From the NCBI RefSeq assembly GCF_056746865.1, contig NZ_CM163382.1: 64,000 bases of DNA; one strand, 5' to 3'. The position numbers were made by a program, and so were the translations under genes. Below, piece after piece: positions 8,462 to 51,828 of this stretch; position 1 is the first letter of the stretch; each line of letters begins with the position of its first letter. Under the pieces are notes generated by a model. The model was not told the origin of the DNA. It saw only the letters and a list, made by a program, of their open reading frames with translations, and ran no database searches.

Positions 8462-8941
8462 GTAAGACAACCACGAAGGGTGTTGCTTTATAGCGTCTTC
8501 GATACCGGTATCGCCTTCGGTTGTTAGTGTGTATTAGATAAGCATGTTTTTCCGCCCGGAAATTTAAAGAGAGTGAATTATTCGACAGAAACGCTCACTT
8601 CTGGAAACGAACGACAAGCATATAACGTCCACCAAAGCCTCAACCAACACGCAAAACCCAGCCCCCAACAATCAACTTAAAAATCAATCGGATATTAAAA
8701 TCCCTTCCATATCAACTTCATCACCACTCTTTTTGCGCCTTCCCCTTCGCGCAAAAAATCAAAATCCTCAACAAACCCAATCACCTACCCCACCAATTAC
8801 AAGGACGCCAGCCAATCATGATTGGACGGTGCAAGGACAACACCAACAAAAACAGGAAGTTAGCAGTCTCAGCAAGACACCGACCAGACGGTGAGGAGAC
8901 ATAAAAGGATACGCAAAGGAGCCGCGGCTCCTGGTGATATG

Positions 8942-8965
8942 AAAGCCCACAGATGTGGGCTTTTT
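8942..8965. terminator. Rho-independent terminator-like hairpin immediately 3' of the autotransporter gene
   Basis: aaagcccac / gtgggcttt stem followed by a T-run on the + strand. Confidence 0.5.
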
Positions 8966-8974
8966 CGTTGATGG

Positions 8975-11900
8975 TCAGAACGACCAGTTCACACCAGCCA
9001 CCGCGTTCCACGGGGATTCCACACCGGCACCATGGCTATACCCCACCCCGAGATGTCCGCTTAACGTACTGCTGAATGAGGCTTTAATACCTGCCTGGTA
9101 TATTCCACGTCTGCCCGACAAATCATTGACGAAATTACCGTCATTATTCACCTTCACCCGGTTATCATCGACAAATTCTTTGCGCACAGCCGCCTTCAGC
9201 CACGGCTCAATTTCCATACCGTTCCCCAGACGCATGTTGTAACTCAGCGTTGCGCCCAGTTCACGATATATACTGCGGGTATCGACTGATTTCGATTCCA
9301 TGCCATTGGATAAATGATATTCGGGGTTATCAGCGGTGAACCCCGTTAACGATGCATACGGCGTCAGGTTCCAGTTACCATCCGTAAATCGCATCCCGGT
9401 TTCAATGTGACCGCCCAGCCCGTTGCTGCGATAACTGCCGTTGGCGGCTCCACCGCTGCTCATTTTACCGGCTACGTTACTTTCAAAGCGGTTCAGCTTC
9501 ACGATACCGTCCAGATAGAAACCACTTTCATGTTCCCAGCTGGCATAGCCCCCCAGAGAATAACTGCCCACACTGCCATGTCCTCCACGATCAAAACCAA
9601 TATGTGAATGGGAATAACCCATAAAAGCGCCCAGCGTCGCAATCCCCTCAGGAATATCATTACGGCTATCGATCCCCACCGTCATTCCGGTCAGCGTCTG
9701 CTCAAACCCGGCACCCGCATCGGTGGTGACATTATTACGGGTGTTATACGTCGTCCCCCAGACATTATTGTTGTGTGGACTCGCTTTCATTATGTTCAAC
9801 CGCTCGCGAATACTGTTTAGCTCAGCATCAAAGACCAACGGTAATGTTGCTGCCATATTGAGTACGGCTGCTGTAGAAGGCGTGATGCGATTCTCCGGGA
9901 CGGGTGTCGGCGTTGGAGCGGGAGTCGGGTCTGGTTTCGGATCCGGTTTTGGGTCTGGTTTTGGATCCGGTTTCGGATTTGGGTTGGGGTCCGGGTTGGG
10001 TTTGACATCATTGGTCAGGTTCCAGTTGCTGTTGCCGTCGCTTTTCAGGACATACTCATAGGTCCCAAGATCAACGAAACCGCCGGTATTACCCAGCGTA
10101 AACGAAGCATCCCCTCCCCCTGTTTTCACCAGCGTCATCGCGTCGTCAGACTGAGGGCTGACGCCGGTATCCTGAACAAAGATTTTAAAATTGCCAGTGG
10201 CGTTGTTGTTGACGACCAGTTGATCGCCCCGGGAGTCTGCAACGTTGGTATGCAGGTAGAAATTACCGCTGCCGGAAAGTTCACTGGTGGTCAGCGTATT
10301 GTAGATACCGTTAGTTGTGGCAGGCGCTGCTGTTTGTGCTGATAAATAAACATCACCGTCGTTGAGGAGTAAACTGTTTACTCTATATTCGCAGTTGCTG
10401 GTGCCTGCACAGGAATTATTGCTGTTAAGCCAGACACTGCCCCGACTGGCAGCCGTCAGGTCGGCAAGCGTCGTATCGACGCCATTTCCGATAGTTAATG
10501 TCGCGCTATCGGTAATCCGGACCACCCCTTCAAGTTTAACTGGCGTAACATTATCCCGTGGCGTCATTAACGACAGGCTTCCTGTCGCGCCACTGACCGA
10601 TGCATCCGCCAGCGTACCTGCGTAGACGATTGCCGTCCCGCCAGCGATCAGTAGATCTTCTGCCCGGGCCAGAGCCTGAAACTCATCTTTTGACCGACCG
10701 AGGGTATATTGCCCACCGGAATTAACCTTTGTGGCGAAGTCCTGACCCAGGTTTTGCATTGCCCCACCGTTGCCAACCGTGGAATCGCGAGCTTCGGTAC
10801 CTGCTAATACCAATAAATTACCGCCATTTTCCAGCAGCACATTGGTCGCTAAATTTCCGGCAATGGAAAAGGTGCCGTACTGGTGAGTACCGCTGATTTC
10901 AATACCGTTAGCCGTGCTCGTCTGGAGAGCGGCACCGCTGTTCTGGATGATATCTGTCGCTTTGCCATTATCGTTGACTGTCAGCGTACCGCCTTCATTA
11001 ATCGTTGTTTTTACTGCCTCACCGTTAGCCGAAACTGTTTGTATTCCGCCGTCGTTAATCGTTGTCTCATTCGCCACCCCCTCGACGATTTGTTCGCCGC
11101 CGGTGAGCGTCGTGCCTGTCGCAGTGGCTTTTGTTTTGACGATCTCCCGCCCGCCCGCATTGACCTGTGTTTTGGCGGAAGTGGTGTCTGACTCCACGGT
11201 TAACACGCCGCCATTTGCCAGCAGGATATTGTTCGCCGCATCCTGCTCAATGCTGAACGCGACGCCATCAGCGCGTGTCCCTGTGACCCGCGTCGCTCTG
11301 GTGGTTGCAACCAACGCGCCCTGGCTACTTTGCTGTATCCCCGTTGCGCTGCCTTTCTCCCGCACATCGAGAGTGCCGCCTTCATTAAGCACCGAGTTTT
11401 CAGCCAGACCGCCCTCATTAACTACCTGTGAACCGCCATTAATAATGGAACCTTCCGCTGTCCCGTTTACCATAATTTGTTGTAGGCCTGAGACGATATC
11501 GGTATTGATCGCCTTACCATAATTCTGAACGGTTTGCGTACCGCCATTGATGTGCGTTTTGTCTGTTGACCCACCATCAACAATTTGTTCACCACTTTCG
11601 ATATTTGCCTCAGTGGCTAAACCATATACCGTTTGCTTGCCACCTTTGATATTTGCTTTTTCAGAAGTGGCACTGGCATATATTGTTTGGGTACCAGCAC
11701 TATTAAGTACAGTACCAACATCTTTTCCATAAACATCCATTTTGCCGTTGGCATTAATAATCGTGTCAACTGCCCGGGAACCAGTGACGACTGTTAATGA
11801 GCCAGCGTTTTCCAGCACTACATTTTTAGCTTCTGAATTCCTGATGTAGAAAGCATCACCATAACTGTTGGTTCCTTCGATAAGTGTTCCGGAGGTCGTG

Positions 11901-13549
11901 GAAGCAATTAATGCGCCGCCGGATTGTTGCTCAACATGCTTAGCCTCACCACCGTCCTGAACCTCCAGAACGCCACCATTATTAAGTCTGGTGCTATCTG
12001 TTTTAGCCTCCTTCTGGACAATCAGCTTACCGCCAGCATCAATGGTAGTATTTTTCGCCGAGGTTTTAGCCATTACCGTCAGTTCGCCGGTATTTTCCAG
12101 CACAACATAATTAGCCTCTCCTCCGGTAATAGTGAAGTGAGAGAGCTTGTTGTATCCTTCGATATCAGTCCCTGCGCCCGTGTTGGCAACTAAAGCACTG
12201 CCCGTCTCCTGGTTAACCCCATGTGCAATACCGCCGGTATAGACAATCAGCGAGCCTCCGGCGCTAATATTGCTGCCAGTTGCCGTACCATCTTTCTCAA
12301 CAACCTGCCGGCTCCCAGAGGATATATTTGTCGTGTCAGCTTTCCCGCCGCTCTTGATATTTTGCGTTCCACTGTTGATATTGGTGCCCGTGGCAATACC
12401 ATGATTATTAATATTCTGTGTGCCACCATTAATTATGGTATTTGTCGCGTTTCCGGCAACATCCATAACGCCGCCATTATCTATTCGGGTCGCATCAGCT
12501 TTAGCATTCGTTAAAACTGACATTGTTCCTTTATCTTTAATAATCGTCTTATTTGCCGAACCATATGCGTTTATGTCTAAATGACCACCGTTTTCCAGCA
12601 ACACATTCTCTGCCACGTTATTGTGGATGGAGAATGCCCCTTCACTATTCGTACCGCTCACCGTCAAATCGTAAGTCGTTACTTTTAAAGCGGCTCCATC
12701 GTGCTGAGTAATATTAGTTGCCGTACCACCTCTAACATCAAGCACGCCGCCGGAATAAACTTCAATAACATCCGAGGAGCTCGTGTTATCAACAATTTGC
12801 GTACCACCAGAATAGATCTGCGTATTTTTTGCCGTTGACTTACTATTCAGAGACTGAGTTCCGCCTTCAATCGTCGTGTCCAGCGCACGGCTCTCATATA
12901 CTCTTTGCTCACCGCCATTTTTAATGGCGGTTGTTTCTACTGTGCTCTGTTCAACATACTGTCGCCCACCATTTATGGTTGTGTTCGTCGCCAGACTTCC
13001 TTGCGTGATGTCCTGATAACCAGACTTATTTATCGTCGTACCGTCAACATGCCCCTGAGTTGATACTGACTGGCCTCCACCATCAATGATTGTTCCATTT
13101 GCAGTCCCCCCCTCTATGCGTGAAGTACCGCCCTTAATTGTCGTGTCATTGCTGGTACCACCTTTATAAACATATTGATTGCCACTTTCGATTATCGTGC
13201 CAGTAGAAATTCCTCCGTACTCAATTGACTGTCTGCCTCCATTAATGGTTGTATTATTAGCTTGCCCGTTAATATCGGCATGGATTGATACTAGTTGCTC
13301 GCCACCAGTTTCAATAATACTACTATTAGATATCCCACCATAGACCTCCTGCCGGCCATGGTTGATAATATGTGTGTTATTTGTTGTACCTCGTTCATCT
13401 ACTCGTTGGTTGCCATCTACAGTCTCATCGTTTACCACACCAATAACATTAGTAGTGAAGGCCGCCATCCCGGGCTGGGCATATATTAAGGCAGATATCA
13501 ATAAGGAAAGTACTGAGCGGCGAAAATAATAGGGACTGGTCCTGTTCAT
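8975..13549 (-). CDS. ypjA: Autotransporter adhesin (type Va), YpjA-like
   Basis: Start placed at MNRTSPYYFRR (13549) with AGAGGA SD and extended signal peptide; repetitive passenger domain; Pro/Asp/Lys-rich linker; C-terminal beta-barrel ending ...GVNWSF. Confidence 0.85.
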   Translation of the reverse strand: MNRTSPYYFRRSVLSLLISALIYAQPGMAAFTTNVIGVVNDETVDGNQRVDERGTTNNTHIINHGRQEVYGGISNSSIIETGGEQLVSIHADINGQANNTTINGGRQSIEYGGISTGTIIESGNQYVYKGGTSNDTTIKGGTSRIEGGTANGTIIDGGGQSVSTQGHVDGTTINKSGYQDITQGSLATNTTINGGRQYVEQSTVETTAIKNGGEQRVYESRALDTTIEGGTQSLNSKSTAKNTQIYSGGTQIVDNTSSSDVIEVYSGGVLDVRGGTATNITQHDGAALKVTTYDLTVSGTNSEGAFSIHNNVAENVLLENGGHLDINAYGSANKTIIKDKGTMSVLTNAKADATRIDNGGVMDVAGNATNTIINGGTQNINNHGIATGTNINSGTQNIKSGGKADTTNISSGSRQVVEKDGTATGSNISAGGSLIVYTGGIAHGVNQETGSALVANTGAGTDIEGYNKLSHFTITGGEANYVVLENTGELTVMAKTSAKNTTIDAGGKLIVQKEAKTDSTRLNNGGVLEVQDGGEAKHVEQQSGGALIASTTSGTLIEGTNSYGDAFYIRNSEAKNVVLENAGSLTVVTGSRAVDTIINANGKMDVYGKDVGTVLNSAGTQTIYASATSEKANIKGGKQTVYGLATEANIESGEQIVDGGSTDKTHINGGTQTVQNYGKAINTDIVSGLQQIMVNGTAEGSIINGGSQVVNEGGLAENSVLNEGGTLDVREKGSATGIQQSSQGALVATTRATRVTGTRADGVAFSIEQDAANNILLANGGVLTVESDTTSAKTQVNAGGREIVKTKATATGTTLTGGEQIVEGVANETTINDGGIQTVSANGEAVKTTINEGGTLTVNDNGKATDIIQNSGAALQTSTANGIEISGTHQYGTFSIAGNLATNVLLENGGNLLVLAGTEARDSTVGNGGAMQNLGQDFATKVNSGGQYTLGRSKDEFQALARAEDLLIAGGTAIVYAGTLADASVSGATGSLSLMTPRDNVTPVKLEGVVRITDSATLTIGNGVDTTLADLTAASRGSVWLNSNNSCAGTSNCEYRVNSLLLNDGDVYLSAQTAAPATTNGIYNTLTTSELSGSGNFYLHTNVADSRGDQLVVNNNATGNFKIFVQDTGVSPQSDDAMTLVKTGGGDASFTLGNTGGFVDLGTYEYVLKSDGNSNWNLTNDVKPNPDPNPNPKPDPKPDPKPDPKPDPTPAPTPTPVPENRITPSTAAVLNMAATLPLVFDAELNSIRERLNIMKASPHNNNVWGTTYNTRNNVTTDAGAGFEQTLTGMTVGIDSRNDIPEGIATLGAFMGYSHSHIGFDRGGHGSVGSYSLGGYASWEHESGFYLDGIVKLNRFESNVAGKMSSGGAANGSYRSNGLGGHIETGMRFTDGNWNLTPYASLTGFTADNPEYHLSNGMESKSVDTRSIYRELGATLSYNMRLGNGMEIEPWLKAAVRKEFVDDNRVKVNNDGNFVNDLSGRRGIYQAGIKASFSSTLSGHLGVGYSHGAGVESPWNAVAGVNWSF

Positions 13550-51553: not shown

Positions 51554-51751
51554 ATCGGGAAACTTACTTTACTGCAGATTTTTTGATACCGCTACTAAAG
51601 CCGTATCAAGTAAGAGATGGTGCATCCGGGAGGATTACTCGCCTTGCGGCTCGCCCTTCGGGCCGTTGCTAAAGCAACGTTATCCTCCCTGGTGCCTGCG
51701 GTTATTACCGCCACCTCTTCTATACCTTCATCGCTGAAAGTACGTAGAATA

Positions 51752-51828
51752 TGGTGCATCCGGGAGGATTCGAACCTCCGACCGCTCGGTTCGTAGCCGA
51801 GTACTCTATCCAGCTGAGCTACGGATGC
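51752..51828 (-). tRNA. argV: tRNA-Arg (ACG), copy 4
   Basis: Identical 77-nt tRNA sequence. Confidence 0.9.

Follow-up and report, generated by a model that had tools for sequence, protein, structure and literature searches.

The attR junction of an ssrA island in Escherichia coli: a G-depleted terminal module related to Salmonella IsrM, joined to an orphaned tmRNA trailer and terminator

In Escherichia coli K-12, the attR of the CP4-57 prophage lies between the prophage end and ypjA, and the 14 nt found right after the prophage end are annotated as a pseudogene, psaA (b4645). Excision of CP4-57 moves attR-side bases into ssrA, which gives a tmRNA lacking U357, and it has been reported to inactivate tmRNA in K-12 (PMC10107115). 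In Salmonella, IsrM is a validated small RNA (sRNA) of 329 nt with a mapped start, located between STM2762 and STM2763 (PMC2330248). Its pairing sites have been assigned to A257-U266 for hilE and to U159-A161 for sopA (PMC3174252).

The window analyzed here is a stretch of 64,000 nt (64 kb) of contig NZ_CM163382.1. An initial annotation, made from the sequence alone, had singled out about 400 bp directly 3' of ypjA in which the plus strand is C/A-rich and G-poor, and which might mark a noncoding transcript. We find that the anomaly is real and that its explanation is an ordinary one, namely the seam between an island and the chromosome, followed by a known terminator. The anatomy is secure: the stretch is an attR in which a conserved arm of the island is followed by a pseudo-ssrA core and then by the orphaned ssrA trailer, whose terminator is shared with ypjA. 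This explanation should help annotation, as the island boundary, the psaA-like fragment of ssrA and the displaced ssrA terminator are all unannotated in the RefSeq records of these strains. The features are reported in Table 1.

Table 1. Coordinates of the features discussed (window positions, unless another genome is given)
Feature	Position	Strand	Basis or remark
Conserved noncoding terminal module, island-side arm of attR	8500..8805	+	Alignments, blastn, Rfam IsrM match
Core of G depletion	8619..8798	+	10 G in 180 nt (5.5%), C 37%, A 37%
Block ATCCCTTCCATATCAAC	8699..8716	+	CCATATCAAC part invariant in nine-sequence alignment
Conserved inverted repeat TTTTTGCGC-N10-GCGCAAAAA	8730..8757	unstranded	Stem retained in homologues, no covariation
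att core, pseudo-ssrA 3' end (equivalent of K-12 psaA)	8806..8813	+	Alignment with island-free genome and K-12
Native spacer following ssrA in island-free E. coli (pre-tmRNA 3' trailer)	8814..8940	+	3,296 of 5,426 genomes match
Bidirectional intrinsic terminator	8941..8969	both	Hairpin and T5 on +; same hairpin and UUUCAU on -
ypjA/ehaD autotransporter adhesin gene, convergent with ssrA	8975..13549	-	RefSeq annotation of identical genome; ORF list
IsrM, Salmonella enterica, RF02763	LT2 2905050-2905378		Between STM2762 and STM2763

Anatomy of the attR junction

The stretch was delimited by its matches among E. coli strains. Megablast of segment 8500-8990 against 5,426 complete E. coli genomes gave a match in 3,296 of them. 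The full query was covered in 126 genomes only, and nearly all the remaining matches started at query position ~298 to 309, that is, window ~8797 to 8808, and ran to 8990. Wherever ssrA was annotated under the match, the mature tmRNA 3' end abutted the spacer sequence. In the island-free strain MLI106K2, for example, ssrA ends at position 3006 of the locus, the match starts at 3001, and ypjA comes next on the opposite strand; this locus is 98.7% identical to window 8808-8990. A three-way alignment placed the junction at ...CCCGCCAGCTCCACCA|ATCATGATTGGACGG... in island-free ssrA, and at ...CAAGGACGCCAGCC|AATCATGATTGGACGG... in the window. On this basis, the sequence from 8814 to 8969 is the native ssrA trailer with its terminator and corresponds exactly to the DNA downstream of the mature tmRNA 3' end in island-free E. 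coli; the few nucleotides before it are a pseudo-ssrA end. Its CGCCAGC (8806-8812) corresponds to the 3' strand of the tmRNA acceptor, and 5 nt of the TCCACCA that should follow are missing (CGCCAGC-C-AATCATG).

The island side therefore ends at a copy of the 3'-terminal core of ssrA, and beyond this core the DNA is collinear with the region downstream of ssrA in genomes that lack the island. The far end of the insertion could be inspected in NZ_CP030768.1, which is identical to the window here: it carries an intact ssrA (468496-468858) and an integrase gene (469025-470272), 31 kb upstream of the junction. The block is also variably present among E. coli genomes. When conservation within the species was examined, as the initial annotation had proposed, the island part was found in 128 of the 5,426 genomes, against 3,296 for the spacer part. 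All of this is what is found at an attR.

As a consequence of the insertion, the spacer is cut off from ssrA in the window, and trailer and terminator lie 31 kb from the gene in island-bearing strains, unlike the island-free arrangement. There, ssrA uses a terminator supplied by the island right after its CCA end (AAAAAAGCCTGTAAC...GTTGCAGGCTTTTTT). No tmRNA gene was found inside the 64-kb window, ssrA being outside it, and no internal pseudo-att site that would mark the boundary of tandem islands was detected. In the arg-ser tRNA cluster of the window, the plus-strand tRNA-Arg(tcg) called by ARAGORN at 51737-51808 overlaps a tRNA-Arg(acg) at 51752-51828 on the minus strand, and is probably a mirror-strand artefact.

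The hairpin and T-run announced in the initial annotation were recovered: the ten-base arms (8942-8951 and 8954-8963) pair at every position, and T5 comes directly after them. This is the first strong hairpin with a T-run in the ssrA trailer of island-free E. coli, and its energy is -15.6 kcal/mol on the plus strand (z = -3.7) and -14.3 kcal/mol on the other strand, where it lies 6 nt after the ypjA stop codon and has a weak U tail. With such arms, its T5 and its place after ssrA in island-free genomes, it has the attributes of a rho-independent terminator, and we conclude that it is the original ssrA terminator, placed back-to-back with convergent ypjA. A simple terminator scan did not pick up this hairpin, presumably because the stem absorbs part of the T-run. 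Weak Rfam matches to isrB and rsmX at 8940-9057 (E about 0.7) were discarded, as they reflect mere resemblance of terminator hairpins.

The closest described junction is the CP4-57 attR of K-12. Both occupy the same chromosomal site, between an island end and ypjA, both have the CGCCAGC core, their downstream spacer and terminator are 96.8% identical, and their ssrA-side integrases belong to the same P4-like family (48% identity). They differ by the island-side arm, which can be aligned over no more than the ~15 nt closest to the core, by the loss at the ssrA end, which is limited to T357 in K-12 and amounts to 5 nt in the window, and by the cargo, made of sugar phosphotransferase (PTS) and hexulose-phosphate genes in the window island, as opposed to the CP4-57 genes. 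Across the collected junctions (L005-L050), the 7 nt after CGCCAGC are variously shortened to CCACCA, CACCA, ACCA, CCA, C, A or nothing, and a full TCCACCA is present at none of the junctions listed.

Composition and conservation of the terminal module

Both G-poor runs quoted in the initial annotation are present, at 8641-8676 and 8784-8803, and the depletion is indeed extreme. The core of 180 nt has the lowest G count among all 180-nt windows of the 64 kb (median 44, 0.1 percentile 16), the two longest runs devoid of G in the 64 kb start at 8752 (51 nt) and 8692 (43 nt), GC skew goes down to -0.65, and C/G amounts to 67/10 over 181 nt of the G-poor block. The skew does not, however, span the ~400 bp first proposed: G makes up 10% of 8560-8807 but 27% of 8808-8965, a part that is merely A-rich and T-poor. 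Extreme G depletion is confined to the island piece and is absent from the native spacer piece. Over the same block, G content is 5 to 9% in nine homologues in which it was measured; the island module has thus inherited its G depletion, which these nine copies share across genera.

Such a composition leaves few TAG or TGA codons, and this has to be kept in mind when a coding origin is considered. A decayed coding sequence, a small gene that escaped annotation or simply the untranslated 3' tail of ypjA is, in our view, a very improbable identity for the stretch. The plus strand does contain open stretches of 105 and 92 codons, but these stem from the absence of G, and the sole ORF listed is one of 53 aa with a TTG start, so that the initial statement that no ORF of meaningful size is present holds. 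No Pfam match was obtained at E up to 1, substitutions had no 3-nt periodicity (40/38/42, P = 0.90), and indels between homologues were 1, 2 and 7 nt long. Together with six-frame translation, these results contradict the decayed gene that the initial annotation had envisaged as the opposite outcome. As for a tail of ypjA, the region does follow the stop codon of this gene directly (8975-8977, minus strand), as had been noted, and the minus-strand hairpin has a weak U tail, but the island part is absent from 98% of the genomes that carry ypjA and therefore cannot be a ypjA feature.

The conservation of the module was analyzed with alignments A2 to A6 and an alignment of 34 sequences. About 30 distinct copies were collected, with blastn identities of 78 to 87%. 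Nearly all of them share window ~8608-8812; in fifteen copies, which form an 'extended' subfamily, sharing begins at ~8500, and segment 8500-8607 is common to these alone. The copies come from E. coli, Salmonella, Citrobacter, Raoultella, Pseudocitrobacter, Pluralibacter and metagenomes, that is, from at least six enterobacterial genera. Those of Salmonella were found by BLAST, while a 20-mer scan of species-representative genomes yielded Pluralibacter, Raoultella, Pseudocitrobacter and two Citrobacter species. Citrobacter On2M has retained the last ~40 nt of the module alone. A scan of metagenomes gave 32 further loci, five of which are chance matches in an unrelated gene. Matches of the 20-mer CCAATTACAAGGACGCCAGC in Flavobacteriales-type contigs were also attributed to chance, given that no wider similarity was present; loci L010, L019, L022, L024 and L035 were grouped with this observation. 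A MAG contig binned as Collinsella (L012) does not differ at all from the E. coli junction within the module, and its identity is 99.4% in the trailer next to it; because of this near-identity it is probably misbinned or contaminating DNA. No homologue of the module was found in phage and viral collections.

Every copy of the module ends at CGCCAGC. In the scans of genomes and metagenomes the search pattern itself imposed the last 20 nt, so that their invariance is independent solely in the BLAST-derived hits. Conservation peaks next to the core, and the surroundings vary on both sides: upstream, each locus has its own unrelated cargo (IS66, a glycoside hydrolase, a 1258-aa protein, membrane proteins), and downstream are found the E. 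coli ssrA trailer, a CP4-57-type attL arm with an IntA-like integrase (tandem islands), iroB, or others. Within the module, the inverted repeat at 8730-8757 would form an RNA hairpin of -10 kcal/mol, which is not a terminator; alternatively, it could be a protein-binding palindrome.

Relation to IsrM and possible roles of the module

An Rfam scan, one of the checks proposed in the initial annotation, matched IsrM (RF02763) to 8568-8824 on the plus strand, over model positions 20 to 272 (E = 2.4e-17, 66.5 bits). The homology is significant, yet with a gathering score of 376 bits the window copy stays far under the threshold of the family. Bona fide IsrM is found in a Salmonella locus (L008) at 3877-4205, with 421.3 bits, which fits the published position of the 329-nt RNA; blastn identity with the window is 86.7% over 135 nt. 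This locus also has isrN (RF01396, 156.9 bits) at 5752-5894, 1.5 kb downstream, as expected for the LT2 arrangement.

IsrM itself could be decomposed into three parts: a lineage-specific 5' segment of ~110 nt with its promoter (-10 box TAGAAT at L008 3866-3871), then the conserved C/A-rich arm, and last an att core followed by the terminator of the attL arm of the next element. The fragment encoding an integrase N terminus that comes after IsrM is 53% identical to the integrase of the window island. These alignments show that the body of IsrM is the conserved att-proximal arm, and that IsrM is assembled across an ssrA att junction. The window and IsrM agree in their strand with respect to the att core, and both are G-poor and C/A-rich; the conserved hairpin and the CCAUAUCAAC box are present in the window; and in both cases the sequence crosses the CGCCAGC pseudo-ssrA core and ends at the terminator of whatever lies past the junction. 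This terminator is the native ssrA one in the window, as opposed to that of the attL arm of the following integrase remnant in IsrM, and the predicted length is ~420 nt for the window version, compared to 329 nt. Unlike these shared traits, the promoter and the first ~110 nt have no relationship: no convincing alignment of the 5' parts was obtained, and the window has TTCCGCCC at the position of the -10 box. The sopA-pairing site (around nt 159-161, in CCAUAUCAAC) has an identical counterpart at window 8707-8716, which does not vary among the nine aligned sequences. In contrast, the hilE-pairing site (nt 257-266, AGCCACUUUUU) straddles the att core and junction, and it is not conserved in the window, which reads AGCCAAUCAUG. 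A modest addition is that a compositional anomaly turns out to be a divergent, unannotated relative of the body of a virulence-linked sRNA. That this body is the att-proximal arm of an ssrA-island family present in at least six enterobacterial genera, with the hilE-pairing site on the att junction itself, bears on the origin of island-borne sRNAs.

Which role the module plays was then weighed. We consider it probable that the stretch is the attR of the ~31-kb island in the 3' end of ssrA and that the module is a cis-acting, and probably relic, att arm. It would be primarily cis-acting DNA, an attachment-site arm beside the crossover core, able to bind the integrase or accessory proteins. Such a role is favored by the position of the module against the core, its persistence across differing cargo, its co-occurrence with the integrase and its core-proximal conservation. 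In E. coli, the module was found in 128 genomes and the integrase with an attL arm in 136; strain E04, where the right-end cargo is another one (an IS66 element), has retained both an arm (84% identical) and an integrase (95.8% identical). In the lineage of the window the arm would probably be a relic, or inert, since the core has lost 5 nt and no attP-type or tandem junction was found in any of the 5,426 complete E. coli genomes.

Candidate arm sites were searched for. Three TTWGCACCAYG-like repeats are present next to the start codon of the integrase gene of the window island. Comparison of the window arm with the integrase-proximal repeat gave one 7-of-8 match, which is not significant (P = 0.38), and matches to the IHF consensus in this arm were at chance level. 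In CP4-57, TAGGCCCAA-like repeats lie next to intA, and two matching copies are found in the attR arm, 60 to 90 nt from the core; because this arm motif recurs next to intA, arm sites flanking the core on either side may be used in this family. The TAGG(C/A)CCAA-type motifs, found three times (once inverted) upstream of the intA start (L016 3889-3912) and twice in the attR-side arm (L018 790-845), are candidate arm-type sites of the CP4-57 integrase. The STM2763-like fragment is preceded by a GGCACCC/GGGTCCC set.

The lack of a significant repeat match, of an IHF consensus above chance and of any attP junction in the 5,426 genomes counts against an att arm, and so do two further observations. 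The module persists in Salmonella Senftenberg with no integrase annotated nearby, in a gene table that is incomplete. More importantly, a strand skew with 5% G over 180 nt is not predicted by protein-binding DNA, and fits an RNA-level or single-strand constraint better; this conserved skew is the main observation that an att arm leaves unexplained, and it keeps RNA-level readings alive. One of them is that the module is part of an expressed IsrM-like sRNA, read from the plus strand from near 8549 (the equivalent of the IsrM start) to ~8965, which would pair with mRNAs through C/U-rich anti-Shine-Dalgarno boxes such as CCCUUCC. We regard this possibility, pairing included, as less probable than an att arm. 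Besides the G depletion retained in the nine measured homologues, the Rfam and blastn similarity and the conserved sopA-pairing box, it is favored by the fact that IsrM is validated, with a mapped start (PMC2330248; PMC3174252). A same-strand terminator is always found downstream of the module, because every ssrA needs one, and the 5' stem at 8568-8602 is mostly retained, with one compensatory G-C to A-U change.

On the other hand, the bit score is low, the IsrM promoter and 5' segment have no homologue here, and no convincing sigma-70-like promoter was found on either strand of 8300-9100, by consensus scan or by a relaxed -10/-35 scan. At the aligned position of the IsrM -10 box, 9 of the 15 extended homologues have TACAGT, which the window has not. 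hilE and sopA are Salmonella genes, and the hilE-pairing site is lost at the junction. Covariation support is minimal: RNAalifold found 0 compensatory pairs on 9 and on 15 homologues, the sole conserved stem of the G-poor block (8730-8757) never varies, and an explicit three-helix model, whose stems are otherwise invariant, gave a single compensatory event, the G-C to A-U change, which two related sequences share. The RNA fold of 8549-8968 is modestly better than shuffles (z = -2.6), with structure mostly in the ssrA trailer. Of the single noncoding transcript initially suggested, what stands is the homology to IsrM, the same-strand terminator downstream and the fact that the stretch is not a decayed gene; what does not is its unity, as it is made of two pieces of different origin, and the score, the 5' end, the promoter scan and the covariation analysis all speak against it.

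Rho has a preference for untranslated RNA that is rich in C and poor in G, and it silences DNA acquired by horizontal transfer. The composition of the module (67/10 for C/G, with almost no predicted structure other than one hairpin of 8-9 bp) is that of a rut site, for which at least ~80 nt of unstructured RNA with C in excess of G are needed, and it is retained in the nine homologues measured. The module might then be an insulator at the island boundary, where plus-strand RNA would load Rho and read-through from island genes would be stopped, either into the chromosome (antisense to ypjA) or, in an excised circle, towards the core and int; the downstream hairpins could serve as pause sites. 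We regard both parts of this proposal as unlikely. Unlike at rut sites, no transcript obviously arrives at the stretch: the adjacent upstream gene (8132-8461) is on the opposite strand, so that little plus-strand transcription is expected. Moreover, other 78-nt stretches of the 64-kb window have an even higher C/G, and in Salmonella full-length IsrM crosses the homologous region up to an intrinsic terminator (PMC2330248). A function as a sponge for the G/U-rich seed of GcvB was rejected, the best duplex (-26.8 kcal/mol) being at the 29th percentile of the genomic background.

With the module as a cis-acting arm, a plus-strand transcript entering it would be an unstructured, C-rich, G-poor RNA, to be stopped by Rho or by the orphaned ssrA terminator, and IsrM-type RNA would arise likewise in Salmonella, where a promoter happens to lie upstream. 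Since every ssrA has a terminator past the core, any promoter near the right end of an island would give a chimeric RNA, composed of the arm, a pseudo-tmRNA 3' end and a borrowed terminator. It is a rather doubtful proposal that IsrM is one expressed case of a widespread tmRNA-island module and that ST69-type E. coli make their own ~420-nt version. If true, this RNA would end at the orphaned ssrA terminator and have regulatory targets of its own.

The loss in the attR core also has a predicted effect on excision. Following the same logic as for CP4-57, and because the attR core lacks 5 nt, precise excision of the window island would yield an ssrA ending in ...CGCCAGCCAATC, without the CCA-bearing acceptor end. 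Excision is thus predicted to destroy tmRNA, a harsher version of the excision switch of CP4-57 in K-12, and for this reason the island may be trapped in place, or selection may act against its loss.

Distribution and gene content of the island

The island end (8480-8807) was found in the 128 genomes at an identity of at least 99% in 126 cases. The carriers look like essentially one lineage, and ST69 is the label of several matching records. In eight genomes, such as that of strain 118UI, the island integrase and attL are present without the C/A-rich right end, so that this end has been lost or replaced in some strains.

In NZ_CP030768.1, ssrA is followed by a 415-aa P4-like integrase, an AlpA-family regulator, a DUF927 protein, helicases and sugar-PTS genes, then by a hxlAB-ptsG-sgrR cargo, an IS3 fragment, an integrase fragment, two hypothetical genes, and finally the C/A-rich stretch. 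At 5961-6641 on the minus strand of the window, 2 kb inside the island end, a 226-aa fragment of a tyrosine recombinase is present, which is unrelated to P4-like integrases. The DNA that adjoins it (6800-8100) has a GC content of 29 to 38%, consistent with mosaic foreign DNA.

A block made of hxlA, hxlB, an isomerase-like gene, ptsG and a gene of the sgrR family is common to the E. coli island (L004 31300-41300) and to Citrobacter sedlakii. In the LT2-like Salmonella locus, the visible part, ptsG-sgrR, matches the block of the E. coli island (L017 1-2311 and L015 794-6284 for the two loci outside E. coli). As in E. coli, these genes, hxlAB-ptsG-sgrR in C. sedlakii and ptsG-sgrR in the LT2-like Salmonella, are located upstream of the C/A-rich module. 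Because the shared block precedes the module in all three loci, this suggests one island family with a variable right-hand segment.
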